A stretch of 64,000 nucleotides of DNA from Lingula anatina. Taxonomy: Eukaryota; Animalia; Brachiopoda. Position 1 is the stretch's first letter; every line of letters starts with the position of its first letter. Below the pieces are notes generated by a model. That model did no database searches, had not been told where the DNA came from, and worked only from the letters and a program-made list of their open reading frames with translations. The translations under genes were made by a program, and so were the position numbers. The stretch is taken from positions 7,688,001-7,752,000 of the forward strand of contig CM120647.1 in the NCBI GenBank assembly GCA_051362555.1, read 5' to 3'. Of the stretch, positions 1,761-57,994 are shown piece after piece.

Positions 1761-2173
1761 GATTAAAAGTGATTAGATTAGGGTGGTCATCAGCGATCCG
1801 GATCATCATCTGGGTCTAGGAATTGTTAATGGATTCCTCGCCATTGCGACGATTCTTCACCATAGCAATGTATGACCTTGAGCCATTGTGCAATGAATGT
1901 GCTCCGAGACCCAACTACCGAAGAGTTATTATCCCTTTAACCATTAACTTCAAAACAAAGTGGCAATTTCCTGGTGAAATCTACGGAAGAAACGACGAGC
2001 TCATTCCCTCTACCGTTCGTGGAAGTCCAGTATACGAGATATATATCTCGTAAGATCTAATTTTTATTATGTCTTTGCTAGAAAAGTAACATTTGCTTAA
2101 TGCTAACATGAAAACCATCATGTGCATACTGTTTTCGCGCAAAATACCAAAACCCATGTAAAGAAAATGTTCG

Positions 2174-2533
2174 TCACTTTTCCTGACGATCCCGAATACA
2201 TTTATAAGAAATAAATGACAACAAGCCGAAACTAAACAGTGCGATATTGGCGAAGCACATTTCCTTGATGCACACGAAGTTTGTCACGCCGAGAAGTATA
2301 GCGCAGATGCCGTAGATGGTGGTCCGGAATATGATGAACATCGGCCATGTTTCATCCGGGAACTCATGTCCAATAAAGGCTGTAAAAGAAAAAATATTTT
2401 TATCATAGTAATAACCATTATAATAATTCCAAATAATAATAATGACATAAAAATAATCATATTAGAAAATAAAATAATCCACGATTAAGCTAGTTGCCCG
2501 TGCTTGCTCCTGAAATACGTATTTTATGATCAT

Positions 2534-2565
<32 letters not shown>

Positions 2566-4584
2566 TATTATTATTATTATTATCCAGAAGTTAGACTCGT
2601 TTTCACATCAAACCAAAGTACCTAATATCATTGGGCTGGTGCCAAAACGAGAGAACCATTCGGCTATGTAACAAATGATTTTTACGGACGAACAGCTTTG
2701 TATACTCTAACTGGACCAATAATTTGAGACAAGCAATGTAGTATTTAAACCAATCAAGTTGTAGGTTTTTTTCCACTGGATGATCGATAAAAACGTTTGT
2801 GTGCGCGGGCTCACGTGTGTGTGTGTGTGCATGTGTGAAACCAACATATACCTGATATCTGCACCATCCATACGGAATCCGTCAAACCGAAAGCGAAAGG
2901 AACCAAGAAAAAATACTCCACTGTGTCCCTTGACGCCTCGAAAAACAACATACTGAACAAGCAGCCTAGTTCCCCACAGGTAGCTGTCACCAACAGGGCA
3001 GTCATCCCGACGTACTTGGTCAGTCGCCCATTCACCAGGGACCCGAGTATGTCCCCAGCGGCAAAACAGATCATCGCCCACCCGTTGTATTCGATGCCAA
3101 GGTTACAACTGACAAAGGCCTGGAATTTCAAATGGAAAATTCAGTTAATGTAAAACTTATATGATTTCTTTCTATATATCTCTTTACAACAGGGCAACAC
3201 TAGGTTCGGGGTCCCCTGTAGTTCGCGTCGTGTGTCCTGCAGTATTCACAAGTAACGAGCAGTTTTTCTTTAAATCAAATAGGCCTATTAGTATATTATG
3301 TTAAGGCATTTTAAAGATGCATTTGGAGCTAGTCGACATGTCAAAGGAGGGAGGGTCGGCTTTACGTCTGTTACCTCCCCCCCCCCCCCCTTCAAATAAT
3401 CCTGGAACCGCCCCTGGGCAGCCTCAACCGACCTTAAACCTACCTTCGAAAACTCTGTGTTCATGAAGTACTGGCTTACGCCATATATGGATATGGCAGG
3501 GAGCAACACAAACACTTTCTTCCTCCACAACAAAGAGAGCACCTTCCCGCCAAAACTCAACGCGCTTTGCACAGCGTCATTGGTGCTAGGTTTTACATTC
3601 TCCAGGAAAATCAGGGCACATAAGAAAGCTAATCCTGTCATTCCAATATAGGCACCGAGTAGTATATGTACAATGTATTGTTCAGGTTGAGTTATGTAAG
3701 TGCCCGATGTATCTTCCCACGGGCAAAACGCAGGCCCGCACAAGTCGGTTAAGTTGTGGTGGGCGTCCAGACCACTAGTCGAATTCAGTCCATCGTTTGG
3801 ATCATTCGGCTTAATCAACACCAGTGACGAGATCAAGTTGCTCCATATACCGCATGTTAAGTACAGAGAATAGAATGCTCCCTGGAAAAGCGACAGCACG
3901 TGCTCTTTACTTTGGCCGGTGACGTCAGCATATTGCAATGCCTGATGGGTAATGAAGACGCCGATTGTTGCCGTTGTCTGGATATGAACTGAAAAGATAA
4001 TGACGTTGTCAGCGCTTTTCTGTTACTTGTATATGCTCAATTTAAATACGTTTAACGTTCATTTAACTATATATATATTGTATTAAGGACATGAAAAGCA
4101 CACTGTAAAGTTCGTACATGTACTCCTGAGTAACAAAAATGATTAAAATAAATAAATAAATTAATTAATTAATAAACTATTATGGGATTTTCAGCACACC
4201 TTTCTATGGTGTTTGTCAGTTCAGCACGCCAACACACACAACATAAACACGCATAAAGATAAACTATGCACACACAGTACATACACAACACACACACACA
4301 CACAGCACAAACACACACCTACTACATGCACAGCTAGTGTTACATGTCACCTTGACCAGTTAGTACGTAAACACAGTCGACATAAAAGATAAGAGTACTA
4401 CCCCTCTTTATACGCACTTTGATACCGGTGTCTCAAAAGTGAATTTGTCGAACTATGCTGATCAAGGTCATAAGTGCGCATGTCCGTTCATATTTATCAA
4501 TACTTAATCCATCCATCCATCTATGAACGTACCCATTCGCCCGTTCATCCACGCTTGCACAGTATATACCTGGTAGACACCTAT

Positions 4585-4631
<47 letters not shown>

Positions 4632-5637
4632 CTTTCAGCTTATAGAGTTTAAACAGAAAATTATTTTGCTGCCATTTGGTTGTTGTGTGGAAGCTTTGTT
4701 GAGGTTAATTCGAAAAATCAGCTGCAAAGATTTTAACAACGTTTTAATTTTTTTTTACAACAACGTTACTATCGATCCTGTTTATATTGGCGAAGTTTCA
4801 GGATTGCTCATTGTTGATCTTTATTTTGTTTTATATTACAAAGTTCCATAATACTTTTTTTATCTGAATAACTGTATTTACTAGCCTTCATGGCGATGCC
4901 AACAAATCCAAAAATTACGGATGCACGTATTCCTTACTTATGTTTTCATGTCTCATTTATCCAAAATCAATAAGTCGGTAAGATTAAAAAGGTAAACTTT
5001 TACTTTATCATTAGATTTAGCATTACGTTGAATAACAATAAAATAACGTTTTTTATGAATCTAAAACTAATGTTAAAATAAATCAAAACTATCTTCAAAA
5101 ATGAAAAAAAAAAAAAAACTCGAGAATTTCGCTAAAATGATGATAAAATCAATAAAACGATATGGGGGTCATTATATCGTTTGCTGGGGGTGGTACACCC
5201 AACCTAGCATCCAACATCTTCTATCCTAAACTGTACTTACCGGCCCCTACAAGAACGGAGACGGGTAACAAGATATAGGGTTCCTGGAAATAATGGGCCG
5301 AGACAAAGACAGCTTGTCCAACCCACCCCAGTAGCACGGACCCCTTGGTGCCAAACGTCCTGGTAAAGAAAGGACCGACGAAAAATATGAAATAGGACCC
5401 AATGTAGTTACACATCAATGCGTAGAAGCCGTACTCTGGAAACAGGATACCCTCTAGATTCCACAAAGCATTGAAGGGAGAGTAACCGATCATGTAGACG
5501 AAGGCAAGAACAAGAAGCTGAAACACTGGCTTCCACTTGCTTTTCGGTTTGGCACTAGGAATCTCCAGCAGGAGCTTTTTCTCCGGAATTTCATCTTCTG
5601 GAATTCTGTGGCTGATGCTCAACACGGCAGGGTCCAT
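2174..5637 (-). CDS. UNC-93-like MFS membrane protein (UNC93A-like), 4 coding exons: 5637-5241, 3988-3444, 3119-2852, 2379-2174
   Basis: In-frame GT-AG junctions join ORFs 5221..5637, 3288..3938, 2811..3131 and a last exon ending ...RDRQEK-TGA. UNC-93 motifs: F-G-FY...W-NLISSLVL, luminal loop CGPAFCPW, EFSK|AFVSCNLG...GWAMICF. About 12 hydrophobic segments. Confidence 0.85.
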
Positions 5638-5979
5638 TCTGTGTTTTGTCGTCTCGCTTTTGAAGGAGTGACATCACCCCACTGATACTTACATGTATCT
5701 TATCTAGGAATGTGTTTATTTTGTCTGGTTATGTAGGCCTGAGTGAAATCTTCTGACGTCAAGCCGAAGTCTCAGAGTTTATTAGATAACCTCTTTTATC
5801 AACATATGCTTCTCAGAAGTTCCATTTATAACGATCTAGCACGGATTCAGGGTTTTGTAAGGAGGGGGTGTGGGCAAAAATAAAAAAGATACACATAATG
5901 TGTGTTCTTAATGAAACTATCGCATTATGGAGTTCGAACTTACTAATAGGGGACTCTCGCTGAATGCAATTAGATTAAC

Positions 5980-9875: not shown

Positions 9876-12800
9876 TACTCTTTGCATGGTGCTTGCATTT
9901 GTTTTCAAAGTTGAAAAGAAACTAGCTAATGTTTTATATACTAGCAGTATTCACACCGAGCCACAAACAGCTATAATATGGTCTAACACGTGTGTTCACA
10001 TTAACGCATTTTTATTCTTTAAGCCCTGGAGCTTGTAGGGCCTCACAAACGCATGATAGCCGGAACAGCTGTGGGTATCGTCTCCACGGCGGGCGGAGTA
10101 GTGGTAACGGGAATAGCCTATTTTCTGCGAGACTGGCGCCATCTACAGTTATCAATATCTGCGCCGTATTTAGTATTTGCAGCGACTTTGTTTTGGTAAA
10201 CATTTTTATACTTTAAACATTGGACACATTAAAATTTAAATATGCTTTCATGAGAAAAGTTCCAGAATTAATTTTTCGATGAGTTTAATTTAACCATTTA
10301 TACGTCTGATAATAATTTAATGAATAGGCCTATATGAATATATATTAAATGTATTAAATAATTGGAAATTATTTATTATTTTTGTGGCTGTTGCTGTAAT
10401 TTATTTATTTATGAACATACTAATGTATTTAATATTATATAATGGAATGTATTGTAATGTATTGTAATGTAATGTAATTTGATTACTTTTATCAGTTATC
10501 ATTGTGATGATATAATCACGGACATAATGACGAATCTCTCATTATGTTCATGATATAATTAATAAATGTTAGAATTAAATTGCACATATCCACCTAACAG
10601 GCTCCTTCCTGAATCTCCACGATGGCTGCTAACGAAAGGACGTCACGAGGAAGCCGAGAAGATCCTGAGGCGTGCAGCGAAAATGAACGGCAAAGAATTC
10701 CCCAAGGGCCTTCTGACCAAGGTGGAAATAAACGAGCTACCTAGCACGAGTATCCGGGCTCTACTACACGCCCCAAAATTGATGTTTAGGATGCTGTTGT
10801 TGTATATTAATTGGTATGTATGTTTCGGATATCGAAACCGGTATACAGGGTACATCAATAGGCTCAAATAATAATAATAATAGATAGATAGATAGATAGA
10901 TAGATAACAAATAAAACAAATAAAAAATGATAACAAAGTTTTATGACAAAAGTTTCACAGGTACCTTTGCTAGTCGACCATGAAATTGTATTACTATCCA
11001 ACGTGTAGAAATTTCGCGCAGCCTTTGGAATTAGAATCGCCTAGGCTACTATCTATTTCATGAAAGTTATTCGGCTTCAGTTCTTATTCAAAATTTTGTG
11101 TGCAGGTTGTACTGGTACATGCTTGGCGCCAACAGTTACGTCAAAACCATCCCGGTGAACATTGTGCAAACTTAAAACTTCTTCACTAATCACTCTTTGT
11201 AAAGATAAGATAGATTAACTATCCACGGTACATTTTTCTCTTTTAGTATAATTTTTTCTTAAACACCTGTTTTGGTTGACTCCTCAAAAAGAGTTCACTA
11301 AAAAGCCTAACAAATTAGACATTTTTCCCATAATTTCATCATTTCTTTGAAATATTTCTTCATTTCTTACAGGATGGTACTCGATATGACACACTATGGG
11401 ATAAATCTCCATACGGGCAACATGGCGGGGAACATCTACCTGAACTTTTTACTCTACTCTCTCGTGGATTTCCCCGGATACGCCCTGTGTTTTACCATAG
11501 ACAGATTTGGTCGGAAGAAGATTTACACGCTGTGTTTAGTCACGGGCGGCCTGGCATGCCTTTCAACACTCTTCGTACATCTCTATGGAGAGGAAGGTAA
11601 AAATAATAAAAAAGGGAACATTTGAGACACGTTGGTGATAAATAAATTTTACATTAAAAACGCGCCTATAAATATCAAGCATGAAGTATAAAAAATATAA
11701 GAAGTGCCCAAGCTTTCCTTATTCTGATAGCACACAAGCCGAAAGCTCGGGGTCTTTTTATCTATCATTTTTTTATCTTTAAAAGATGCGTTCTTTATGT
11801 AATTTACGGATTTCTTATTCAAGATCTGTATAAGATCGATGTGATTATGATGAATCTTCAAAGTCACGCACGCATTTTGTGTAATATTTATTTTATGTTT
11901 ATTTTCCGTTACTGTTGCTTTCTTGTCATAACGTAGGGTTCTGCAGTATAAACATCAACAATAATGGGTCAGATCCGAATATTGCAATTATAACGAAAAA
12001 AATATGCGCGTCACTGGTGCAATTCAAATGTTCATTTTAAAGTGGACGTTATCTATCATGTAAAATCGATGTCGTCATTATTTTATGATTTTTGTGATTC
12101 TCCATCGACCTCCTATCCTAGACAAAACCCTGTATATTAAAGTATAGAGTGTCAGAAGGCGAATAAGTTTGTTTTTTTATTATTTTTTTTCCATAGAAAC
12201 TAATGTCTGTCGGTGTGATAGATCTACATTATATCGGATGGATAAAAAAAACGCAACGAATTTTAAAATGTAATAGTTAATAAATAAATAAATGAATAAA
12301 TATTCACTATAATTATTAAAAAATCAACAATCCAATTGTTACATCCGTCCATGGTCTTAATCCTGAAGTTTCTTTTCCGTTCTTTTACATGTATCTCGTT
12401 TTTTTATTGACTTGTTCAATTTTTTCCAGATGCTACTTATTCTTACTACGTCAAAATGGCGCTCTCTACAGTCGGGAAATTAGGAATCGCGGCAGCTTAC
12501 GGAATCAGTTACATATGGGGTGTTGAACTGTTCCCGACTGTGGTCCGTAACTTCAGTTTAGGTCTAGGGTCGGTGGCTTCCTGCGCGGGGGCTATTCTTA
12601 CACCAATAGTTGTCGTAAGTATTACTATTAATGAGAAAATTACTGTCCCTTGCTAAGGGAGGGGTGTTTGATTTCCCTAGAACTTCGATACTTTGCCCCG
12701 AAAGGTACGACTATTTTTAACTATTTTTAACTTTAAAAACATGATAAAATGTTCACGTGTAGAATACTGAAGAAATGGTGTGAGTATTAAGAAGAAAAAA

Positions 12801-17392: not shown

Positions 17393-20300
17393 ATGCCGGG
17401 AACGGCCAAGGTGAATCCCGATCTCCAGAAGGAGAGGAACAGAGCCACTTTTCCTGTCCATGTAATGACTTATGTATTAGATGGAGATCCTGAAAAAACG
17501 AAAAGGCGGAGATACGTAGGTGAGAGGCTAAATTTTATGTTATTTTGATGGATTTATAGGTGAGGGTTGGGGTTCAAAACTAATGGGAGGACTTTCGTAA
17601 TTGATGGACGAAAGGCCGTGGGAAACTTTTTGGTTTACGCCTCAGGTAATTACTCAAGTTGCTCCTCATCGACAGGTTATGTGGCAACATGTCTTTTTTT
17701 TTTCAAATGTAAACTGAAGAAAATGTGCAGTCTTAGTGTGGAAGATCGTGCCCTGACTTGGAGGGAATCCCTGACTTGTACCTAGTTTTTGACCTCGACC
17801 TTTGGTATGGAGGACGTGTTGTGTGATGAACATTGTCACTTAGAATTGAGGTCTCAAAATTAGGTCACAACTTTAAAAGGTCCGGGGGGGGGGGCACTCG
17901 ATCGTTTCCAGTTCTTCTGTTTGGATAGGCAGCTGAAAGGTTGCAGTAACCAGTGACACGCAGTTGAAAAATATTTGTTTGTGGAAGGGGGGGTGACTTT
18001 TTCCAGTTTTGTACAGTCAGAATAGGTAGATCACAATCCGCTAGGGGCGCTACAGTCGTAACTGTCCACGGGCAGTGAAGTGTAAAACTGAAGTCGGCCT
18101 GCTGACAGTTCGCCTATGGAACCCCTTTTTCAAATCTCTCTTTTAGCGCCGCGTAAAAAAACTAATACAAGCCATTAACTAAATAAGTTGTAAATCAAAG
18201 AGTAAAATCCGGTCACGTGATTTTCCCATGTTGCAGTCTTTGACAAGTTTCGGTTCTGCTTGTTTTAAGCTTTGCCTCTACAAAATGATAAAAAATTTCA
18301 GTTAAGTGCTGGTATCATCTTTTTGAAATTTATATCCAGCAAAGTTTATGAAATTTGCTATATTATGTAGAAAAATCATGAAATTTGAAGGTTGCGAAGT
18401 ATAGTTAATTTAATCCGCAATATTACATGATGTGAAAATTACCACAGGGAAATAGCTTTGCCCTGATTAGTCACAGGCTATGTGAGCCAGACAATAGTCT
18501 GAGCACACAAAGACACACAGGGTGCTCTGCTGCGCCTGAGTGATCACTGCTGGTCAGTGGGCACAGGTTTTGAGCTGAGAAGTGTGGACACTTTTGGTGG
18601 ATTTTTGCAGTTAAAAAACTTCAATATCTTTGTTGCTTGTAGGAATATTTAAAAAATTCCAAATGATTTCATCCGGTTTTTGCATTACCTTTCAGATGAT
18701 GTAAGTATTTTAATTTTCTGATCAGTTTGAAAATTTTTCTGATATACCTAGTCAGAATGATGTTGAGCATGAAAAATGAATTCAAGAGTCTTATTACATT
18801 AATTGGCATTAACAAGAAAGATAATAAAAGTTAAGATGTAACATATATCAGTATTTTATTAAAAAAAGGTGGGAAGTTAATTACTTGCAATATGGTAATT
18901 CATATAATTTCATAGATGTATAATAAATAAAAAAATCCAATAATGTAAACTGTTATGGAATAGCTATCTTTCTAAATCAATGATAAATTGCAAAAATACC
19001 AATCACAGTGCATTATTGCTCCTAGTTATTTATTGCCCTGAGCAAATATTTATCTTCCTTGGGTTAAAAAGTGGATACAAACAGATAACACTGGTGTGGT
19101 GAATCAGCATGTACATCCTTTTCTACCACTTGACCCTTGTGACATCCAATAAAACCAGCATAGTCGTATAAGCTCTGTCTGATCTGGGAGTTAAGAAAGG
19201 GGGGATATGGGGCATTCTTAACTTATTGTTGATATTTGTTGATTATTATAATTTATGTTCATAAATGTATTTTAATATCATGATTATTATAATTATGCAC
19301 AGTATAACTGTTGAATATTTAACTAATTAATTCATTTTTTTTCTAGACAATTTAGTGCATATACTTTGCAAAAATATTAATGAAATGTGATTGACTTTTT
19401 TAAATTTCATTTTCATATTTGTTTGTTAATTTGTTTATTTTAAATTTTCTTGAAATTTAGGTTCAGAGATTACAGTAATGTGTAATGCATTGCACATGTG
19501 TCACAGCACACCCATTGATGTGTGCCTATACTGTACTAGTAGTTGGTTTTTGGCAAACATTCAAAATTTGTTGCCCGATTTTCAATAGATCTCATCTTTT
19601 ATTTTTCAGAGAACCTTGTACTCAACGACCCTGTGTACAAACACAAACCAGTATGTTTTATGTCTCGCGGGGAAAGATACTCCCTGGGGATGAAGAAGGC
19701 GCTGCATGCTGTGAAAAAATTGAAGGAACTCAACCTGACGGACCCTGCTGATCAGTACTATTACAGATCGTGAGTGCTGGCATTTACTTTATATCTCTTT
19801 TCCTAGAGATTGGTTAACCCAGGAAACACAGAAATTTTCTTTGGCCTTGTGTTAAATATGGTATATTCGACTTCCACACAATCCCATTTTTTTCAAAATC
19901 ATATTGGAATTAATGGTAAAGGATAGTGTGTATGGTTTATTTATTTTAAAAAACATTATTATTGAACATTATTATTATATTTATCTTATCATGTCTAAAA
20001 GTTATTTTCAGTGAAAGCAAGTTAATTGATAAAACTAACTTAAGATACTAGTATGGTACATGTGACACTTTTATATATTTCATCTATATAAATTCTATCT
20101 ACTGCTGAAAATGGAAAATATTGAAAAGATGCCAGTCCCAAGCCCCAAATTATATCTGTTTATTAGGACATGACTTCATAGTTATGCTGATATCAACAAG
20201 TGACCCAGATAATATTCCAGTGACCGAGATGGAAATCTCTGTGACTTAGATAGAAATTCCCGTCTAAGGGAGTAGGTCATTGCATATAAGCCTTCTACTG

Positions 20301-23300
20301 TACATTTTAATTTTTAAAATTCATAGGCAGTTTAATATATCAAAATAAGTTCAAATTTTGCATGGCCTGATGAAACTGCTTTCATTAACTAAATCTGATA
20401 TTCTTAAAAGATGTTCAAGGTGACTGTTGAGGTGTGAAGAAATTGACGTTTAACCCGTGAAAGTCTGCTCTACATCACTTTATTTCCCCCTCAGTTTTTT
20501 TAATGAAGAATTGTCATCCCTTTATTTATTACATATGCCCACACGTACAGGAGCACACACACACACATACATACATATAAAGATCTGGTTTAATTTTTAT
20601 ATCATTTCAACGCATATAAATCCAGGTTCACAATGCCACACGAGAATTCCCCAATTGCCCTCCAAGATGACATGTTCATTCCCATAATCTCCACACAGAC
20701 CACCGATGAGCAAAAAGCAAAATGGCTGACACTGGCAAAGAGTCTCCAGATTATTGGCACATATGCACAGACAGAGTTGGGACATGGTATATTAACTTAT
20801 CAGTAGATTCTTTTTAGGCATTTGCATGATATTTTTGGTAATAAGAGAATTTTTTGTGGGGGGGGGGGGGGGGGTAAGGGAGTTTGCTTTGGACATTGCG
20901 CAATATGTACAGGTCTTAATATTATTGGTACTTTCATTTCCAACACTTGCCTCAGTTGCTTTTTACAAGTAACTAACAGGTGTGGTTTAAAATTAGAAAA
21001 GGGGCAAGCTTTACTGACATAAAACTCCTGGACCTTGACCATCAAAGGAAAAAAATAAGGAGAGCTAAAAATATTTTTAAAAAAATTTGGAAATCCTGAC
21101 AGAGCATCGAGCCTTGGCAAATTATTTATTTATTTATTTATTTATTGTGTCAAATAACACGTTTGAAGAAATTGGAGGAGAGGCTTTTTAAGTTTGAAAA
21201 ACATATATTTAAGCAAGTAGTAACGGGTATGTGATCAGAGAGTCTGAATGGATTTATATAACTAGGTTTTATTTTATTTAAATTCTTAATATTCAACTAA
21301 AACTGTTAAGTTGCAGATTGGTATATGACCTGTTTTGATGACTTAAAGTGATAATAACTCTTCTTTTCAGCCAAAAAATGAATTTTCCTGGAGTAAACAA
21401 CAATTTTCCCATACTTACCAATGGTTAATGAATCCATTTTTACATTCAAAGTTAGTCCCTGGTTTTTTTCTAAAAAGTTTGGTTTTTTGTTAAAATCTCT
21501 TAAGAGATTTTAGCAGAGTATAGCCATCAGTGGAGGTCACGTGGTCTAAAGACAAGCTCAGATATCAGAATAATAGCTATAACTGCCGTTTTTGTGGTAA
21601 AACAGAATATATTATATTTCTATGAGTTATTCACAATGTTTTTATTGTGAAATATAGATCTCATACGAAGAGTTATTATCCCTTTTAAGTAGCTGTTCTG
21701 AATTCCCTTTAATTAGTACCACCAGCGTGTACGCTGGCGGTACTCATGGTTTTAGTCCCGACCCGTCTCGTCCGGCTCCGCCGGCTCCGCCGGCTCCGTT
21801 GGCTCCGCCGGCTCCGTAAGCTCCGCCGGCTCCGCGTACTGGCGCCGGATACAAGTCACCGTTACCGCTTCTCCTCCTAGACCACAAGGACCCCTGTCCC
21901 CATCTCTTGGATTTAGGTCACATATAACCTCAACTTGAACCCCCAGGTTTTTTTGTCTCAGTCGGTACATTAACCTGGGCGTGACGCTCGTTGAAATGCA
22001 CCCTTGTCAAAATTTTTGAAAATTCAATGCCATTTATCTACCCTACGGAAGGAATTATGGGAAAAATTTCTACAGACGGCTTTCCAAAAGTCATATGTGT
22101 AGATTTCAAATATGCCCTTGGATTTGACCTTTGACCTTTATTTCAAGGTCAAACGGGCCAAAATTTTCAAAAAAATGAAATTTTTTACAAAAAAAATATT
22201 ATTTGCGCTGTTATTCAGACACTACACAGACTTAACCAATAATATTATTGGAAAGTGTTACCCTTTGGGTCTTCTTTGATCTCCGTGAATTTGGGGTCAA
22301 TCGGTGCATTTTCACGGGAGAAGCGGCCATAAGATACTGAAACTGAAAACTGTCTCTAATTCGGGAACCGTTAATGCTAGCGACCTGTTCTTTTTTGCAT
22401 TTTATAGAGCATGTAAAGCCCAACATTAAAAAGGGTCTCCGTTTTTTTGTATTTCATACGGTTTTCGTGTTATGCTGTATTAAAAAGTACATTGTGGTGG
22501 CACATTATTGTAACTCAGAATTGTAACATTATATCTCCAAAACTGGCAGAGATAGGTCAATAGTTACTATAAAAGTTGAATAGGATGTCACATACTGGCA
22601 ATTTAACAGTGACCATAAAATTGACCTTTGACCTACTTTTCATCATGAATTGAACTTTGCAAATTTTCGTTCCCTTTTATCTCCAAAACTGGCAGAGATA
22701 GGTTCATAGTTACTATTGAACTTGAATAGGAAGTCATATACTGGCAATTTACTGTGACCTTAAATTTGACCTTTGACCTACTTTTTACCATGAACTGAAC
22801 TTTGCAAATTTTCATTCCCTTTTATCTCCAAAACTGGCAGAGATAGGTCCATAGTTACTATTGAACTTGAATAGGAAGTAATACACTAGCAATCTGTGAC
22901 TTTGAAATTGACCTTTGACCTACTTTTTATAATGAACTGCTTTTTGCATGTTTTCAGGCCTTTAAATCTGCAAAATTGGCAAAGAAATACCCATGGTTGC
23001 TATTGAAATTGAATAGAAATTCATATACTATGATATTGAAATTGACCTTTGACCTACTTTTTCACCATGAACTGAGCTTTGCATATTTTCTTGCCTCTCA
23101 TATCTTTAAAACTAGCAGAGATGTGCCCCTTGTTGCCCCTAGGTTTTCTCTTTTGTCAGCATATATGCACCATTGACAACACTTTTCAAGGAAAACCAAT
23201 AGGCCTTTTGTCTAGAGAATACAGGAGTGATCAAGGGTAGGAAAATGCAAGTCAATTCGAAAATCTGCTTGATTATACCATTTTTAGTTATATTTTTTTG

Positions 23301-26300
23301 CATATTTTGAGAACTCTTATTGATTGCATCTTATAGAGCTTGTCAAGCACAAGACTGGTGATGGTGTCCCTTTTTGGAGGGGTGGGGGGGTCCATACAAA
23401 TGCGCTTACTCCAGCTGGTGGTACAATATCCGGAGGCGGTATCGCCTCTCTGATCCTCTAGTTAAAGACTGATTTTTGACTGAGCAACACCAATTCTGTA
23501 GAAGTAGGCTCACAGCAGGTCCTACCTAAAACATTTCATGATAATTTCACCCTTAAGATTTTTTTACGTAACCTCAGTGCAGTGGCTCTACAGACACTGT
23601 TTTTTTCCTTTTTTTACCTCCGCCATGGAAGTTATGTTTTCGCCCCTGTTTGTCTATCTTTCTGTCTGTTTTTCATCAACATAACTCAAAAAGTTATGGA
23701 CCAATTTAGATGAAATTTTCAGGGTAGGTCAGAAATGGGTTAACTTAGAAGTGATTAGTTTTTGGTGGTGGTCTGGATCAATAATCAATCAGTAATAAAA
23801 AAAATAATAAGTTATGGACCTATTTTGATGAAATTTTCAGGATCTGTCAGAAGTGGGCCAAGGAACAGATGATTAGTTTTTGATGATGATCAGGATCAAT
23901 AATCAATCAAAAATCAATAATAATAAAAAACCGCTGCCGTGGCGGAGGTCTGCGCTCTCGGAGTGCTCTTCTAGTTTTTTTTTTTTTTTTTTTCTGCATT
24001 AAGTGACCTCTAAACCCCTGGTTACAAGGCCAACAAGCCATTTCTACCATGATGTACAACCCTGTGGATAACTGTGTTGGGAATCTGCCAGTATTTCATG
24101 GTTTGACAATTAACAACTCGTTAGAAATCTGCATAAAATACCCTCTAGCGTAGGTATGGAGATCAGGGAATTCTCTGAAATTCCGTTTTTCCAGCCAGAA
24201 GAGTGTTCTGCAATGTGATGAGAGATCTCTTTAACATTTCAAGGCCATTCGAATGTACTGTATAGTAATGACTTGAATCTTTTTAAATGGGGAAATTTAA
24301 TCTGACAGGAACATAATTTTGGATTCACTAAAAATTCTATTCTGAATAAATGTTTTGTGATTTCACTGTATGGAATAGAATTATAGGGTAACCTGTTTTA
24401 AATTTTGTTGCTGCCACTTAATAGAAATGATATTATTTTCAGAATTTATCACTTAAAAAATAAACAGTATCAGTAAAGCTCACAATTTCCCCCCCCTGAC
24501 AAGGTCAAATCATTACCATGATACTTAAAGCGCATTCGGAAAGGCAAAAAAAAAAAAACTAACAGATCGTCAAATCAAATATGGCTGACCCACTTGAATG
24601 CATGTTGCATAACCCCTGCAGGGAATCTGATCAGTGTATAATTGGGAATTAAGCAACAGATTTTTAGTGGGTAACCATGTTTTAACCGTGGATCTATTAG
24701 TCAGCTGTTCTGAATGTACTATAATTTGTCTTCAGCATCTACCAAGCTCATGAGAATTCCCCCCTTGCCATTCACGAAGGAGTGTCAATCCCCTGTGTGC
24801 GCTCTCTAGGCACAGACTAAAAGGAAAAAAACATGGCTGCCAAAGATGGAAAACTATCAAATCATATTCACGTATAATCAGACCGAGATGGGACATGGTA
24901 CATTCAATGTTTCCGATATTTGTCTTGTGATTTTTATGTGGCGGTTGATTATGGGAGTTTCTTTGATTGCAGTTATAGTTTTAATTCACATTAAAATGAT
25001 AATTATTGAATAAGGAAACAATAATTGTTTGGGAATTATGGGTTTCAGCATCCAGTTTCAAATTCTTTGGTGACATGTTCCCAATATTTAAATTGTTAAA
25101 ATGCAATTATAATCACTGTATTTCTCATTGAGTTTGTGCTTGTAAATGTTGTGTTTGTCTTACAGCATGCTAGGCTACTGACCCCCCTTGATTGAGAGCT
25201 TGTTTTAGCTCTCATGTTCGCTACACCTAAAGCTTAATACATCTAGATTTACTTTGATTGAACTGGGCCATCAAAAATCGATGTCAATATCGAGCTGAGA
25301 ATGCAGGCCGAAAAGTTAAAAAAAGAAATTATTCTTGTTAATGCTTATATACATTGAGGGAAGGAGTGTGCTTTCTTATCCACAGAGGTGCAATGCCCCA
25401 TGAAAGTTCTCCAATAGGCCTTCACACAACTATGTTTATCCCAGCAATTGCAGGACAGGGCAGTGACAAACAGAGGAGAAAATGGCTGCCATTATGTGAA
25501 AGTTACAGAATAGTTGGAACCTATGCTCAGACTGAGGTGGGGCATGGTAAGGAAATTGGGAACCCAGTCCCATAAATTGGGATAATTGGTATCAATAGAA
25601 AGGCTGGAAAGGATAGTAGAATCTGAGATGGCAGTCAGAAACAGGAGTGCTAGTCTAGTATGAATATTGGGATTATTGATGTAAGGGGGTGGTAAGGAAG
25701 TTAAAAACTGACATCAATGTAGTCAGGTAAAGGGTATTAGAAATGGAGTTTTACAGGCAGGCTTTTATTGTTTTATACGTAGGATGGAATCAGAGGGCTA
25801 AATAACTGGCATTTTATCATTTTCAATTATCATTTCTCTGAAAAGCATTTTGTATGTATTATTGTTGGACCCATTTTGCTTTGTTTGTTATAGATTATAA
25901 AAATAAGAAAAGTCAAATTTGAAATGAGGCATGTGATTGGGAGTGGTCTTCTAGAGGATAGCTGTTTAGTTTTTCAGCTTGGTTACCATTTAATGAAGTA
26001 AAAGTTTAAAATATTCAGGAAATGAGCCCAAAATAGTCTATATTAATTAGTGGTGTGTGAAATTGATCGCAATGACGGAAAATAATACCCAATAAATAAT
26101 ATAAGTTGTAGACTATAATGTTACCAAATTGCAGCTGATCCCCACCTTTTGTTACATAAATATGGATGTTTATATAATAACAAATACAATATAATCTGTA
26201 GACTATAATATAAACAACTTACAGCTGATCCCAACTTTATTTTAAATAAATATGTATGTTTATTTTATTTATTTTTTTTTTTTTAAATAAAGACTGAGCT

Positions 26301-28424
26301 TTAAATATACATGCACAAACACTTCGAAATATCAAGCAGGAATCTGTTTTGATGATCAAAAAATGTCTGTAATAATGTTTAGAATATTACCTGCATCATA
26401 ATGTGTCTCATTTACATTGGCAGAACTTGATCATTAGCAGTCTGTGTTAAGCATTGTTAAGGTGTATAATGGCACTGATATATTCAAAGGGACCTCTCTG
26501 ACTTTTCAATGTTTCGTGCTGGTATTTTTTATGTAACAACAGCTCTTTTCATTCATGTCACTAACATGATCCCTTGATTATAATTTCATGTCTGGAAAGG
26601 TCTATACCTGACTAAGTGAATCAAAAAGCTTACTTATTATTCTGGTCCTTTAGAATACTGTTAGCCTTTGCCAAAAAACTCCTTATGTACTACATTATAT
26701 ATATTCTTTTGGATAACAGATAAATCTCTAGTGTTATGTGACTAAATTATTTGATATTTACACACACCATCTTGCGGATGATGTCATAATTACAATTTTG
26801 GGGTACAAATTGAAAAATTGGTTTTTCAAATGTCTCCATTACCTGAGCACCCACGAACACCATTTTAACGCCAATTTAATGACACCATTTAGTATCCTAA
26901 AACCATGCCATTATTTTATCTTAAAAGTGTTAGTTCAGATTTTATTATTGATAAAATAAAGTGATGCCTTTGTTTAATAAAGATCTGTAAAGAGGGACTC
27001 ATGAATCCATAACAAAAACATTTAAATAAAATTGACAATGTGATTGTAGCCCCTACACTTGTGGTCAGTTATGTCAACTACACTTCACAAGGCCTTTAAA
27101 AGCATTTGTAGTACCTTACAGAAAACTATGTGTTTATATTAAAAAAAAACTTTTACATGCCTGTCACAATAAGAAGTTTAACTATAAGTTTAACTATAAG
27201 TATATTTGAAGTGAAAAAAAAACCTTAACTTTTTGTACTAGGACATGGTAAAATAAACACATTTGATAAAGAATTCAAATCATTTTTTTACAGTGTTTTT
27301 TTTCTTCCCAAAGAAATTGCACTAGTAAAACCTGAGGAGTGAAAAATTCACCTGAGAGCAAAGCCAAAGTTTGCCTCAATGTATTGGAAACATTTGATAT
27401 GCATTAGTAAAATCATCTTTTCTCCAGTTTTTCGGCTCCCCATGAAAACTCTCCTTTGGCCCTTCAATATGGCATGTTTATTCCAATGCTTATGGCCCAG
27501 TGCAGTGAGAAACAGGGAGAAAAATGGCTGCCATTGTGTGAGAATTTGACTGTTATTGGGACCTATGCTCAAACTGAGTTGGGTCATGGTAAGCTGAAAT
27601 TAAGAAAAGCTTCATCTTGCTTTCATTGCACATGTGCGTGATTATTGTCAATCAGGAAAGAATTTGATTGCAAAAAAATTGGCAATTTTTCCATAATTTG
27701 AGATTTCCCCATTGCTTTATTGGATGTAGTCAATGATATTAAATACAAAACAAATTTAAGCTGAGATTTATAAAAAAAATTGTTAATATTTGTGATCACT
27801 GGCTGTTGCTTTAAAGAAATGTTTATTTTAATCCTTGTTGTCCCCAAAGACCAAAGGTATGTCGCACATGTACCACAACAAGTAAGAATATGACTGGGTT
27901 TGTTTAATATGCCTGTCACAAAAATGTGAAAATATTTTTCATATTTAATTTTTTAATGATTAATAAAGGAAATATAATTAAAAAATGAAAATGTAATAAA
28001 TAAACTGCTTGCAATGCTTTACATTATATTATCTGCTTACGCAGTGGTTCCTCTGTCACAGGTGCTTTTTCACATAAATTTTGTACTCCAGGATCAGTAT
28101 AATATGAAAAACACAAACACAAATTTGAAAATTATTTAAATTTATTTTCCATGAAGCTTTGTATGCAAAAGCAAGTTCCGTTTGCCTATGCTCTCTCCAT
28201 TTATGGAGTCTGAAATGCTGCATAGCATCCATTCTTTCACTGATCACATGCCTCATATCAAAACTGTCAATATTAGTAAATTTTATTTAAATGCTTGCAA
28301 AAATAACTGAAAGACTTTGACTTTTTTTGGCAGTTTCCAGTGGAAAAAATGTTTCACAGAGATGTAGCCTTGCATTAAACTGACAGCTTGGCTTATCTGT
28401 GACTGCTTCTGCTTTTTTTTTCTT

Positions 28425-28492
<68 letters not shown>

Positions 28493-31162
28493 TTTGGTAT
28501 ATTGTTTTTTCTTGTTATGGTCATTTTTGGTAGCATTTTGAGGGATGCTTAATTTTTTTGGGGGGGGGGTGGGAAAGGGGGTTGATAGCTTCTACAGTCC
28601 AATTTTAGAAAAAAATATTAAGTTGTCATTTTTGGGGTTGTGTCTATTTTATTTTTCTTAATGGCTTTGAATTATTAAGACCGGTCAGTTTTACCTTACC
28701 AGTGCATAAGATTTTGATTAATATATCAGTAACATTGCTTTATGGTGTGGGAAATAAGCAAAAGTTTTAAGTAGCAGTTATTGAAACCAAAATATAATGT
28801 TTATTCAGAAAAACAAAACATAATGTTATTTAAGAATATTTGAATTCACATATATAATGGTAATGTTTGTCAATGTTTTATAGAATGGGATAAGTTTCAA
28901 GTGTGGACAATTTTAATGAAAAGATAATGTAATAATAAAGTAAAAACAAAAATGCTTTTGTAATGATATGTTATCTCTTTTCATTAATTAATTAATGAAA
29001 TGGTTTTTAATTGAAAAATTAATTAATTTGCTGTTACTTTAATGTGAAATCCTGACCACTTCCAGGTACATTTGTGAGGGGTCTGGAAACTACTGCCACC
29101 TATGATCCCCAAACCGAGCAGTTTATTATCAATAGCCCTACTCTGACTTCTACCAAATGGTGGCCTGGAAATTGTAAGATTTGTTATTTTAATGAATATT
29201 TATTTATTTATTTAGTTATTGCCAAGAATTATTGTAAGGCAGCTTTAAACTAGATGATTTTGAGTGCCTTTTTGAAAAATACAGCCCTGGATTTTTATTT
29301 CAAGTAGCCAAATCACTACTTTTTCATCTTTTTTTCAACAAATTGATAAAAACAAGTCACATCAACCTTGTTTTGTCAAGCCAGTTTAAGTCAGTTTAAG
29401 CATTTGACTAAATCGGTGAGTGTTAGCACTTACCTAGAATTTAATAACTAACTTCTTCGGTCTTTTCTTTTTTCATTTTAAATTTATTTATGTTAATTCA
29501 TTTTAATTATTATTTTGATTATTTATTTATTAAGTGGGAAAAACCACCAACCATGCCGTAGTCTTGGCCCAACTGTATACGGGTGGCAAGTGTCATGGTA
29601 TTCATGCCTTCATTGTCCAACACAGAGACATGGAAACCCACCAGCCATTGCCAGGTAATGTGAGCTATTATACTTAAATGTCATGGTATCCATGCCTTCA
29701 TTGTCTAACACAGGGACATGGAAACCCACCGGCCATTGCCAGGTACAGTGCGATATTACAAGTAAATGTCATGGTATCCATGCCTTCATTGTCTAACATA
29801 GGGACATGGAAACCCACAAGCCATTGCCAGGTACTATGTGATATTATACATAAATGTCATGGTATCCATGCCTTCATTGTCCAACACACACAGTGATATG
29901 GAAACCCACCAGCCATTGCCAGGTACTATGTGATATTATATATAAACGTCATGGTATCTATGCCTTCATTGTCCAACATAAGGACATGGAAGCCCAACAG
30001 CCATTGCCAATTACTGTATGGCATTATGTAAACCAAAATGCTGGCATGGGATTGAAGCTAATAAACTTGTGGTCAACTATACCAGTTTTCATGTTCAGGA
30101 TAATATTTCATCCTCAGGTAATATACCAAAAAATAAAATGATCATGATTATCATATCAGGGATAGAGGAGAGAGATATCAGCTCCAAGTTTAACATCTAT
30201 CCCAAGTTTGGCTGTTATTATTATTGTTGTTGTTGCTGTTGTTGTTGTTATTATTATTATTATGTTTTACATTTCAGGCGTTGAGGTGGGAGATATTGGT
30301 CCTAAGTTTGGCTATGAGGCAGTGGACAACGGTTTCTTACGTTATCACAATGTCCGCATACCTCGGGACAACATGCTGATGAGATATTCTGAGGTAACGT
30401 ATGTCAATCATATATACGTACTTATGGCAGTAATATTTATTCAAAGGGAAAGTGCATTAAGGCATACTACTTGTTGATTAAATTTATTTAATTAATAATA
30501 GTTTTAATGAAAGATGGTTAGTTAATTAAGTTTTTATATTATAATCTTAGTTTGGCAGTTCAGTTCAATATTAAAATTTGAGTATTAAAATAGATAATAA
30601 TGTTTTGAGGTTGGTTTTAATGAAATAAATTTAAAAGTGAGTCTTACCGGATTTGTTATTTTTCCCTTAAGGTAACCAAAGATGGTCGCTACATAAGAAA
30701 GGCCAATGAGAAGCTGACTTATGGCACCATGGTTTTTGTACGATCTGCAATTGTAAGTACTGCAGCAAAGAACCTGGGGGAGGCCTGCACGATTGCTATA
30801 AGATACAGTGCAGTGCGGAGACAGTCGGAGATGAAGCCCGGGTAAGGCTGTGATGCATTCTGGGATGGAAAAATTGAAGATGGCTGGTCATTAGGACCTG
30901 TGGGCCTCAGAGTACGACTAATTTGAAATCAAAACTTATTGAACAGTCAAAAAGTCAAGTCTGTGTATTGATGATGTTAATTGAATTTTAGTTTTTTTTT
31001 TATGAAATTCATTCAGTTTTCAGGTTCAGTGACAATTGGCATGGGTCTTTCAACTTTGGATTATCACTGATGGTCCATTATATGTTAGATATTAAATAAT
31101 TTACATGGGGCATTACTATTTTTACTCAGTGAACCTGAATTTCATTGGCAGAATAAACATAA

Positions 31163-31201
<39 letters not shown>

Positions 31202-34200
31202 TTTATTATTTTTGAATTAAGAGAACCAGGTATTGGACTACCAAACTATTATAATTATTTTTATTATTATTATTATTTTTATTATTTTTGAATTCAGAGA
31301 ACCAGAGCCACAGGTATTGGACTACCAAACCCAGCAACACAAGTTATTTCCCTTGCTGGCCACCAGCTATGCCTACTGGTTTGCTGGTCGTTCCATGAGG
31401 GAGACCTACCTGGATATTCAGGGCCAGATCATGGCTGGGGATTTTAAGAGGTTACCAGAGGTATGTGAGACTGGGTTCCCATACCCAGATAGATCCATCT
31501 GAATCGGTCTAACTCCCTGCGGAGTCTCACTAAATTGCCATCAACTAAACTGGCTTAAATGTCTGTCACGCCTACCGAATCAGCTATGGTAAAGATAGTT
31601 ACCCCCTAACAGCTTTACTTGGCGTGACAGACATTTAAGCCGGTTATGTTGATAGCAATTAAGTGAGACTCCCCAGAGAGATAGATCGATCCAAATATCT
31701 GTGGGAATGGTCCCTTAACCATTTGACATGCTCCAGTGATTTAGTGTGTAATCAGTGACATGGTTATTCTCAGTTGTATTCAAACCAAAGTGTTATATTT
31801 ATTATAGTGTTTGAAATTCATGCTTCCTGTGTGCCATCTTTATTGCCACCCCTTAATAAAAATAATTAAACAAATAAAAGAAAGAAGGGGAGAGTAAAGG
31901 ATTGTGTATTTAACTGCTGCATGGTTCATATTTGTGAAACATGTTTTTCATTATCTCTTGTACAAATGATAGAAAAAAAATTCCGAAGTTTCTAAAGGGA
32001 TGAAATGAAGGGTAAAAACATCCTGCCTCATCGATGAAAAATGCATTAAAAAAAAAAAATTTTTCTTTTTTTTACTGTCTTTCACATTAATCCTTCAAGT
32101 AGTCAATTTTTTACATATTATCTGTATTAGTCTGGTATTTATTTTTCTTTACAGCTTCATGCTCTGTCAGCAGGACTGAAGGCTATGAGCACCTGGGCAA
32201 CAAATGAAGGTATCGAGACCTGTCGACTGTCGTGCGGTGGCCATGGCTATTCGCATGCCAGTGGACTGCCCAAGATCTATGTGGATGCAACGCCAGCGTG
32301 TACCTACGAGGGAGAGAATACGGTGATGATGCTACAGACAGCAAGGTAATAGGCAGTGGCAGATTGAGGGCGTCTTCAGATTTTCAAATTTACATTGATG
32401 GGTAACTGATGCTTCTGTCGGAAGATGGTCATAAATAGAGGATGGATCAACAAAAATAATTCAAAGGACGGTCAGAAAATATCTCTGGGTCTGTCTCTGA
32501 TAGAAATACTATACAACACCATAAAGAAATATAGCACACTCAGACTGTTAATTTTACAATTTATTGTGACGGGTTAAAACTTTCCCCAGAGAGCCATCCA
32601 GCCATCCTTTGGATAGCCATTAGCATCAATAGAAAGCCTTAATTTTGAAAGACAGCTGCTCAGCATACAAACTTTTTTGGGATGAAATCCCTGTTAATTG
32701 ATGACCAAATTACAGATTAATATTTTGCACTTTGTGTACCCCTGTTTCAGGTATAAATTTGGTGATTTGTAAAAACAGTGTATAATCAGCAATGTAAGAA
32801 TAAAAACAATTGAGTATATTTCTTTTAACTCTTTAATGAAGGCCTGCAGACATACTGGGCAGGGAAAGGACCTGTAATTAGCTCTGACTGTTAAATTATT
32901 ACTATATTATATCAAATTTTAAATTGAACTGTTTTGAATGTATTGCTTCAGATATTTAATGAAAGCGTGTGGACAAGCAGCCCAGGGGAATGAGTTGCCA
33001 GGTTTTGTGGCTTACCTTAATCAGAAAGGAGTGGACAGGTGCATGATTGGGGATGACCTCAGTTTGAACAGTCTGGTCTCTGCATATCAACACAGGGCTA
33101 GAAGGTATGATATGTTTTAGGTGTCCTGTCTGGGATTTTCAGGCCAAAACAGTCACTTTCCCTTGGATAAAAGCAATTTTCTAACCTGTTTTTGCTCAAC
33201 TTATCCCTTCAGTACACTCAGTTTCCCTTTTTTTATTTGTATAAATTCTTAATGCCTTGCCAGATATTTGGACTGCTATTATATCTACCAGTGCAATCAA
33301 TTGAGGAGGAAATTACCAAGCCAGGTATTTCGATTTGAAGGGTTTTAAGTTTTAAGGGTCTGTTATATATCATCCTTGATTACTCTTTGTTCAACTCCTT
33401 CAACCTGTACTGTAAATTGCAACTTATCTACTCATTGCCTATCTACATCATTGAACTTCCTGTTTTACATCTGTATATTTGCCAGTGTTGCTGTCTAAAT
33501 TCCTATTTGTGTTCAGGTTAATTGGTAAAGCTGCCCTGCAAATGAAGGCCCACATGGAAAGAGGCCAGCCCCAGGAGGTGGCCTGGAACTTGACCTCTGT
33601 CCAGTTAGTCCACTGTGCCAAGGTAAGGAATTGAAACGACCTGTCCATCTAGTTAAAATAGGCTTCTGTCCTCTGCAATCAATTTTTTCAAGGCCTATGT
33701 ATGCCTCCTGTAATTGGTGACCTATTGTAGTGTTGACCTTTTCCCCTAGGCTATTGCCTACTGTAATTGATGACCTAATTTTGTGTTGACCTATCTTTCC
33801 AGGCCCATGCGCATTGTAACTGGTACCCTTCTTTTGTGTTGACAAATTTTCCATTCCCAAGTCCATTGTAGCTGGTAAACAAAATTGGGTTTATCTTTTT
33901 TTCCTAAGCCCAATTGGGTTTATCTTTTTTTCCTAAGCCCATGACCACTTTTATCTGTGACCTTATTTTATGTTGACCTATTTTTCCAGGCCAATAGTCA
34001 GTAAAATAGGTGACCTTATTTTATGTTGACCTATTTTTCCAGGCCCATGTCCAGTGCTATGTGTTGAAGAACTTTGTAGATTCCATTGAACAATATGGCC
34101 ACCATGAGGATGTTGCCAAGGTGCTGACTCAGCTGTGTCAGCTGTTTGCTGTGGATGGTATCTTGAATAATGCTGGAGACTATTTACAGGTAGGAATGCT

Positions 34201-56460: not shown

Positions 56461-57994
56461 TTAAGGAACAGCCATTTCCATTTTAACACAGTCGTTGACG
56501 TCTTTACACTGGTAATACGTCACGTTTTCACCACTTGGGCGGATCTCCCAGAAATTAAACGCGTCGCTTACCGATCTGGTGTGGTTCACCGTTGACATAT
56601 TGACGCACAGCGACCTCTCAAGTTGCAAGTTGGGGTCATGAAACGCGCGGTTTGTACCACAGAACATGCGTTTCTCGCTGTCGTCTTCCTCGGGTCTTGG
56701 GATCCACGAGCTGACGTTCTGGTCTTCGGGTATTCGTTGAAAGTACACATCCAACTCTTGTTTGTACGGGTAAACATTACAGCCGCCCGTGCTGTTCTTC
56801 AATACACAAACGTGGTTGTAGAATATCGCGGACTCTTGGGGATGATATTGAAGAAAAAAGGCAACGTTGCAATTTTCTATGCCAGAAGCGTTATTCCAGT
56901 TATAATTCGCTGACAGAGGTGAATCTGAGATGAAATTGGTTTGGTTGTCGAATATGGGACAAGGCATTGGGATTGAAAGGTTGCCCTGCGCAAGAACGCC
57001 GAGAGAAATTTTATTGAAATTGAAGACCATCGGGGCCTGAAAGGTGGTGGTGGCGTTTCCGTTGTAATGAAAAAAATGACAAGGGAATCTAATCATCCGA
57101 CCTGCATCTCCGTCATAAAAGACGGGGGCGGCAAAAGCTAGCAAAAACAAACGAGAGAGCCTCGGTACTTCTCGACTAGTTCCGTTTATTTCCGGCACAC
57201 TGCTCTGCAGGCGGGCGAACATTGTGACGTCCGTTGAGTTTTCATTGGCGGCCAATTTGGCAAGGCCTTGCAGAGCCGGGGGAGCGTTTTTTATTCGAAT
57301 TTTTCCTATCTCTATGCCAAAAGATTCAAACAGGTCCACCACGTCTTGTGTGTGCAACATGGCGGCAATAAAAAGGATATCGAAGACGATGGAAGCAAGA
57401 GCTGGCAAACAAGTAAGAATGTCTATGACAAATCTGCACTTGTTCCGATTTTTGTCGTCTTCCGCGCAACATTTGCAACACCCATTTATAGCCTTGAAAA
57501 TGTTAATGACCACAATGACAGAGGAGAGGGCCAGACCAACGGCCCGTGCCACAAATGTAAACTTTCCCGTAAGTTTTTGAGTGAACGCACAATATTCTGT
57601 ATTCGCTATACTCCATGTCAAATACGCAAGGGGCAATTCTCCTAGCGCCTGCTTCAAAAGTAGAACAAAGTCAAGAGCGACTTCTATCTTCTTCTCACGC
57701 GCTTCATCGGACTTGGAGACTTCGCCCCGCCTTATATGTATCGCCGTGGTTGTAAGTTTGAAGATGCAGAACGGAATAACAAGAGAGACCGTTAATGTCA
57801 CGTCAATACAGCAAACTAAGTACCAGGTGTGCAAGGCACTGTTTTCCTCTTTTCCGTCTATATATGAGACATCAATTCTTAATACCTCTGTATACGATAT
57901 CCAGTCCATGACGGCGTCAACGATTGCACATCCCATGAGGACGAGCGTTTGTATGAAAATAACATATGGTTTACATTTCTTGATGTTGTCACAC
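56461..57994 (-). CDS. Uncharacterised multi-pass membrane protein with a large Cys-rich, N-glycosylation-site-rich C-terminal domain (single large coding exon; 5' exon not located)
   Basis: 491-aa ORF with higher GC than flanks; frame stays open upstream to acceptor ccattccag at 57995; about 5 hydrophobic segments in the first ~200 aa; many N-x-S/T sites (NST, NGT, NAT, NLS, NQT, NAS, NVS, NMS, NHT, NVT). Confidence 0.75.

Follow-up and report, generated by a model that had tools for sequence, protein, structure and literature searches.

A probable docking-site/selector RNA switch in the exon-3 array of Lingula anatina ACOX1

The 64,000-nucleotide window analysed here (Lingula anatina assembly GCA_051362555.1, contig CM120647.1, positions 7,688,001 to 7,752,000) contains the gene for peroxisomal acyl-CoA oxidase 1 (ACOX1), whose third exon occurs in four copies flanked by intronic segments that could pair with one another. 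Pfam confirmed the ACOX domains at the locus. The constitutive exons bordering the array, like the exon copies and the pairing sites, lie on the plus strand: exon 2 (19611..19769), with AG and GT ends and a translation matching XP_013413464.1 (P0003), and exon 4 (29066..29173), with RNA depth and a translation matching P0001-P0003. Between them, each copy of exon 3 is bounded by AG and GT. Three copies are 161 nt long and open in frame, namely 3a (20626..20786; weak donor ATG/GTATAT, the slash marking the exon end), 3c (25386..25546; donor ATG/GTAAGG) and 3d (27428..27588; donor ATG/GTAAGC). The remaining copy, 3b (24736..24897; weak donor ATG/GTACAT), is 162 nt long and has a TAA at 24818-20 in the assembly. 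The donors of 3c and 3d (GTAAGG, GTAAGC) come close to consensus, and the 3a and 3b donors (GTATAT, GTACAT) depart from it. The RefSeq cluster for this gene holds three proteins with one exon-3 copy each: 3c in XP_013401428.1 (isoform X1, 100% identical to our translation of the exon), 3d in XP_013401429.1 (isoform X2) and 3a in XP_013413464.1 (2 of 53 residues different).

Any pair of copies shares 90-110 identical bases, with the equal length and phase of tandem homologous exons. As 161 nt is not a multiple of three, transcripts with no exon-3 copy, or with two or three, have a shifted frame, and mutual exclusivity could for this reason be enforced by nonsense-mediated decay. Four-fold degenerate third bases are identical at 2/11 sites between 3a and 3c, 2/12 between 3a and 3d and 9/12 between 3c and 3d. 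A comparison of the introns that follow 3a and 3c gave nothing beyond AT-rich or chance matches. In a tree of 32 exon-3 peptides (53 columns), the four Lingula copies were neither grouped nor rejected as a clade (p-AU 0.47); in the same tree the Owenia pair and the Glandiceps pair each grouped with strong support. The first intron bases after 3b (24898-24904, GTACATT) equal the first bases of exon 4 (29066-29072), and those after 3a (20787-20793) differ by one base, so short junction overhangs are ambiguous there; this likeness may be a trace of how the copies arose. A 22-nt same-strand similarity (86%) joins the 3c-3d intron (27151-27172) to the 3d-4 intron (27903-27924). It contains ATGCCT and TCACA, pieces also present in the docking site described below, and is possibly a relic of a younger 3c/3d duplication.

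Downstream of the last copy, 804 nt upstream of exon 4, lies a 36-nt candidate docking site, or dock (28227..28262). The first-pass annotation, made by a model from the letters of this DNA alone, had described it as complementary to three segments, after 3a, 3b and 3c, and had expected all three to come out on top of a duplex scan with shuffled controls. Two of them did. Across the whole 64-kb sense strand, the candidate selector after 3c (Sc; 25917..25947) ranked first at -37.2 kcal/mol and the one after 3a (Sa; 21219..21254) second at -34.5 kcal/mol; the third-ranking site reached -27.1 kcal/mol, and the segment after 3b fell below the top 20. None of 413 dinucleotide shuffles of the dock reached -34.5 kcal/mol at its best site in the cluster, from which a repeat block at 21343-24100 was excluded, and neither Sa nor Sc was equalled by any of 300 shuffles in its own intron. 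The predicted Sc-dock duplex consists, exactly as annotated, of 22 of 23 bp (25918-25940 with 28240-28262) plus 6 bp (25941-25946 with 28229-28234). The two helices annotated for Sa, of 14 bp (21225-21238 with 28240-28253) and 8 bp (21246-21253 with 28227-28234), are both present, and a further 3 bp lie between them. When the 101 uninterrupted helices in 19770-29065 were ranked, Sc-dock (17 bp) and Sa-dock (14 bp) came second and third, with a common 3' arm at 28240-28253, behind a helix that joins the ends of one repeat.

Sa and Sc both pair with dock positions 28240-28253 and 28229-28234, and because they share 28240-28253 only one selector can hold those bases at a time. The annotated overlap of all segments on the dock core stands for these two, the pairing after 3b being itself at chance level. 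Across the shared 14 bp, Sa and Sc differ at four positions, all of them G-U-compatible where the first-pass annotation had said largely so, and the duplexes are stronger on the sense than on the antisense strand (-34.5 versus -29.6 kcal/mol for Sa, -37.2 versus -32.7 kcal/mol for Sc), as is the weaker pairing after 3b. The excluded repeat block occupies much of the 3a-3b intron (21343..24100) and comprises an element with inverted ends (21345-21685) and 145-bp and 118-bp tandem arrays; it is of high copy number, and loose-ended RNA reads at 21343, 21685 and 23463 number in the hundreds to thousands.

The candidates after 3b and 3d are borderline at most, although each is the best dock site in its own intron. 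Sb (24934..24958; -19.6 kcal/mol) does not exceed chance: all 413 dock shuffles found a better site somewhere in the cluster, 89 of 300 did so within its intron, and within 100 nt of 3b as good a match arose in 255 of 1,000 dock shuffles and 52 of 1,000 target shuffles. Sd (27630..27664; -18.8 kcal/mol), which the first-pass annotation lacked, pairs with the 5' half of the dock and is doubtful, being matched by 26 of 300 shuffles in its intron and by 52 and 49 of 1,000 within 100 nt of 3d. Its antisense duplex is the stronger (-22.0 kcal/mol), and the diverged dock form described below weakens it by 5.3 kcal/mol; we do not rely on it. Selectors are therefore solid after 3a and 3c and chance-level or borderline after 3b and 3d. 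In 14-3-3zeta, the last variable exon may lack a selector.

No upstream or second dock hub appeared among 360 tiled 36-nt windows (18-nt steps, repeats at 21343-24100 excluded), a search that a short or weak dock could escape. Ranked by second-best partner, the dock came second in this set, behind a poly-G tract; the strongest rival windows were poly-G tracts at 20850-20875 and 28547-28590, which we rejected. A bidirectional layout, with an upstream dock and selectors before the downstream exons, was likewise not found, and the antisense strand of the exon-3 region had no two-partner hub. An 11-bp helix with two G-U pairs joins 20879-20890 (93 nt after 3a, beside the poly-G tract) to 28169-28180 (47 nt before the dock) and could be an auxiliary pairing or chance. 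A weak Rfam match to SCARNA7 was rejected (21.8 bits against a gathering score of 65), and nothing else came near its gathering score.

Four of nine RNA runs (X12, X15, X16 and X18; 6-25% of each) were compared over 19600-29200, with depth scaled from bin to exon length on the assumption that all reads fall on the exon. In X12, depth was 21x on exon 2, 5.9 on 3a, 12.1 on 3b, 7.8 on 3c, 0 on 3d and 18.5 on exon 4 (24 reads at 29115); in X18 it was 6.9, 7.9, 0, 0.3, 0.2 and 4.6, respectively. The variable exons together thus amount to about 26x in X12, where exon 2 has about 21x and exon 4 18-24x, and to 8.4x in X18 (6.9x and 4.6x), about the depth of one constitutive exon, as expected if each transcript carries one exon-3 copy. 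Exon use varies between runs, on small counts, with 3a dominant in X18, 3c in X16 and a mixture in X12. RNA depth was found on 3a in X12, X15 and X18 and on 3c in X12, X15 and X16; 3d was almost unused, with a bin depth of 0-0.16 in all four runs. The first-pass annotation had made 3d the copy used when the dock is unpaired; the RNA does not show such a default role, and the rarity of 3d fits its being looped out while the dock is paired. That annotation had also called 3b a pseudo-exon, which holds only for this haplotype, with its TAA and its 162 nt. In X12 the stop is removed in all 11 reads, which carry G at 24818 and C at 24821, and no variable exon is deeper than 3b. It looks intact there, although the 1-nt length difference does not appear among the best 12 of 81 indels (the letter differences being likewise the best 40 or so of about 1,600), and is likely intact in another population.

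The dock is not a many-copy repeat, though very short copies elsewhere could escape these tests. Among the 4 of 11 DNA runs compared at 28140-28345 at 80% likeness (X2, X3, X10 and X11), three, X2, X3 and X10, gave a single contig each, which argues that the dock is not a dispersed repeat; X11, another organism, gave no contig at this likeness, which is no proof of absence. RNA depth on the dock bin was 0 in all four RNA runs, where the repeat block reached hundreds to thousands. At up to three mismatches, the 17-nt core had three matches in the 64-kb window, namely the dock, Sc and one at 58950 (0.10 expected). A high-copy repeat would have overturned the first-pass annotation, and these results speak against one. 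The protein P0003 is only 92% identical to P0001, a difference high for alleles, and at 29119 all four RNA runs have G, which gives the Glu of P0003 in place of the Gln of P0001 and of the window. This could reflect a second ACOX1 copy or strongly divergent haplotypes. A usable ACOX1 paralog, which the 92% identity suggested, was rejected given the single dock contig per run.

Conservation gave a mixed answer. The 24-nt core at 28240-28263 is identical in X2, X3 and X10. X2 has five substitutions and two gaps and X3 one gap in the compared region, none inside the dock. X10 covers 28145-28309 and differs at 19 of 165 nt (about 12% diverged; 14 of the 19 differences are listed, the other five lying near the piece ends by the rule of the table), with none in 28240-28263 and three in the dock, at 28227, 28236 and 28239. 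Among the 108 possible single changes of the dock, these three rank 1, 4 and 6 for strengthening its pairing with Sa, Sb and Sc of this genome, and together they change the duplexes by -1.3 (Sa), -3.6 (Sb) and -2.4 (Sc) kcal/mol, taking Sb from -20.7 to -24.2 kcal/mol in the same frame. Random dock triples did as well in 24 of 3,000 cases for Sa and Sc and in 10 of 3,000 for Sa, Sb and Sc (27 and 8 when weighted for transitions); with Sd included, the counts rose to 74 and 80 of 3,000. Of the conservation expected in relatives, the unchanged core and the direction of the dock changes are suggestive signs; the dock as a whole is not depleted of changes. Because 3a and 3c are saturated at four-fold sites and their introns are otherwise unalignable, Sa and Sc appear to have outlasted the rest of the introns, which argues for selection.

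From the sequence, we consider it likely that a downstream dock/selector switch of the 14-3-3zeta type steers which ACOX1 exon-3 copy joins exon 4. With Sa on the dock, the loop would hold 3b, 3c and 3d together with 2.7 kb of repeats; the path from 3a to exon 4 would shrink from 8.3 kb to about 1.2 kb (439 + 804 nt), rescuing the weak 3a donor. Sc-dock pairing would loop out 3d and cut the path from 3c to exon 4 from 3.5 kb to about 1.2 kb (372 + 804 nt). Exon 3d, which lies 1.5 kb from exon 4 and has no well-supported selector, would be chosen only while the dock is unpaired, presumably a rare state; if the dock is paired most of the time, 3d would be expected to be rare. Exon 3b would be served by the weaker selector, probably better with the X10 form of the dock. 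The structure does not explain why upstream copies are skipped during Sc pairing; the likely answer is default skipping, backed up by the decay of frameshifted products that include two copies. The array may have originated when the exon was duplicated together with one arm of a hairpin, an idea put forward in the available text of PMC6071210.

Several results weigh against this switch. A region-wide test that asks whether any arm has two partners this strong found a hub in 4 of 108 region shuffles. Taken by themselves, the core helices are therefore of modest significance (p about 0.04 after multiple testing); the test counts core helices, and the extra 8-bp and 5+6-bp helices and the ordered layout stand outside it. 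With that figure attached, one dock after the cluster is complementary beyond chance to two selectors. Of 12 control strand-regions in the window, 7 also had two-partner hubs, the examples printed being homopolymers, microsatellites and repeats. Opening the sites costs 11.7 kcal/mol for Sa and 9.4 for Sc (dock 7.2; Sb 12.6), after which Sa and Sc pairing would still be favourable and Sb pairing near zero in this haplotype; the local opening cost of the dock core, 3.1 kcal/mol, counts in favour of the switch. Although 3b is the deepest variable exon in X12, its selector Sb does not exceed chance. Exclusivity itself is seen indirectly, as no exon-exon junctions are among the best 15 of 152 RNA joints, all of which lie in repeats, and X15 and X16 are too shallow for the depth sum (exon 2 at 0.3x and 0.5x). 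Dock conservation alone is weak: the probability of no change in the 24-nt core is 0.04 with 19 differences and 0.10 with 14, and three X10 changes in the whole 36-nt dock are not fewer than expected (P 0.37). The strengthening by the X10 letters is computed against the selectors of this genome and is therefore one-sided, with no true compensatory pair, and an outgroup with ancestral letters would likewise match old copies better.

An unlikely alternative, though the best of those we weighed, is that the pairing is real and selected and merely shortens repeat-filled introns or aids weak donors, exclusivity coming from nonsense-mediated decay together with protein factors at the acceptors. The frameshift that follows from including none, two or three 161-nt copies would suit such a division of labour, as would the response of human exon 3a/3b choice to U2AF (PMC5224494) and to ILF2 loss (10.1101/2022.06.15.495552), as far as the available text of both sources goes. 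The strong differences in exon use between runs (3a in X18, 3c in X16) also call for more than a fixed duplex. Two features speak for the switch instead. Both selectors fall on the same 14 dock bases rather than on separate partners, an arrangement that matters only if competition matters, and 3d is the least used copy despite its strong donor and shortest path.

A second and less probable possibility is that the three segments descend neutrally from an old hairpin or inverted duplication that was copied with the exons, an origin suggested in PMC6071210, and are now functionless. In reverse complement the dock does resemble Sa and Sc, the match would be improved by ancestral letters in X10 without any selection, and conservation of the whole dock in X10 is not significant. 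With 3a and 3c at 2/11 identical four-fold sites and the rest of the introns unalignable, however, neutral relics should have decayed. The departures from Watson-Crick pairing in the two duplexes, moreover, include six G-U pairs and favour the sense strand, a count partly biased by the way helices are found. A chance match or dispersed repeat fragments, for which the 4 of 108 shuffles, the repeat hubs in the control strand-regions and the repeat-rich intron might be cited, is very improbable and largely refuted by the single contigs in X2, X3 and X10, the absence of RNA depth on the dock where repeats reach thousands, the three matches of the 17-nt core (two of them dock and Sc) and the extra helices and ordered layout that the hub test ignores.

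Other features of the window stand apart from the array. Downstream of the array, an 88-bp tandem repeat of 4.7 copies (29591-30009) consists of the 3' half of exon 5 and its GT donor, giving several possible donors after that exon, and a partial duplicate of the start of another exon lies just upstream of it at 31221-31300, between ATT microsatellites. Elsewhere we found a sugar/organic-ion transporter exon (10566-11625, plus strand; PF00083), a lipid-droplet-associated hydrolase (53441-54799, plus strand; PF10230) and a 519-codon open frame with a hydrophobic N-terminal half and no Pfam match (56461-58020, minus strand). Membrane-protein exons at 1981-5673 (minus strand), of which two pieces tested gave no Pfam match, resemble UNC93.

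Downstream docking-site/selector pairing was reportedly described by Yang et al. in 2011 for the insect genes considered here. In the available text of the papers cited below, it is documented for Drosophila 14-3-3zeta (xi) exon 5, Dscam1 exons 4 and 9, Mhc and MRP1 (PMC4691838, PMC6071210, PMC8042237, PMC8791459). As in those genes, the candidate Lingula dock lies in the intron that follows the cluster and its selectors lie behind variable exons; the predicted pairings overlap, with G-U intermediates, and would bring the chosen exon close to the next constitutive one. Unlike the insect systems, the locus encodes a metabolic enzyme of a brachiopod, and the predicted loops, of 2.3 and 7 kb, span a repeat block. 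In human CD55, a docker is predicted for four mutually exclusive exons, the number found in Lingula, with a selector downstream of each variant (PMC5740500), and human ATE1 exons 7a and 7b are governed by competing long-range intronic pairings of the kind predicted here (PMC7797038). Both differ from the Lingula case in gene and lineage, and only two of the four Lingula selectors are solid. Exon 4 of Drosophila srp shows bidirectional pairing that includes a downstream dock with an upstream selector, and mutations there indicate that the downstream pairing acts by proximity and is required by the exon with the weaker sites (PMC4691838). A downstream dock with an upstream selector is predicted for Lingula as well; no upstream dock emerged among our 360 windows apart from poly-G tracts.

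The exon concerned is one already known to be swapped. Vertebrate ACOX1 has exons 3a and 3b (ACOX1a and ACOX1b), and a published assessment counts three separate origins of the exon-3 duplication, one each in chordates, echinoderms and molluscs (PMC8373072); the human isoforms differ in acyl-chain preference, set by exon 3 (PMC11178532). The same exon and protein stretch is exchanged in Lingula, with four copies rather than two. Isoform pairs that differ only in the exon-3 stretch were found in Mytilus (25 residues), Owenia (12), Glandiceps (7), mouse (27) and milkfish (28); in the Patella pair, the difference was not confined to that stretch. Three different exon-3 peptides occur among the Mytilus ACOX1 proteins (P0067, P0132 and P0136), and mussels may also have an exon-3 array of three or more copies. 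Among the papers listed in a literature search, with supplements outside its range, none gave an RNA pairing mechanism for any ACOX1 or a dock/selector system in Lingula or brachiopods, and the available text of PMC9741552 and PMC7434440 mentions no pairing mechanism for ACOX1. The dock/selector cases compiled in a 2022 list come from flies, amphioxus (MRP) and human genes, and the portion available has no lophotrochozoan among them (PMC8791459).

The mechanism itself is not new, having been published for several genes; as far as the literature search goes, the gene and the phylum would be the new part. A more far-reaching version, which we regard as doubtful, is a four-way switch in which the dock varies between Lingula lineages and so tunes the isoforms, the X10 form favouring Sb and a live 3b and the dock of this haplotype disfavouring Sb, with 3b dead. 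If true, it would show, in nature, a drifting dock linked to the disappearance of an enzyme isoform, and ACOX1 would gain its first dock/selector control. With a simple and strong two-selector case from a brachiopod, the mechanism would reach another phylum, and there would be support for the idea, raised in the available text of PMC6071210, that such switches arise on their own when exons duplicate with one hairpin arm. Such a case would also be a reason to look for docks in the ACOX1 genes of vertebrates, mussels and annelids.

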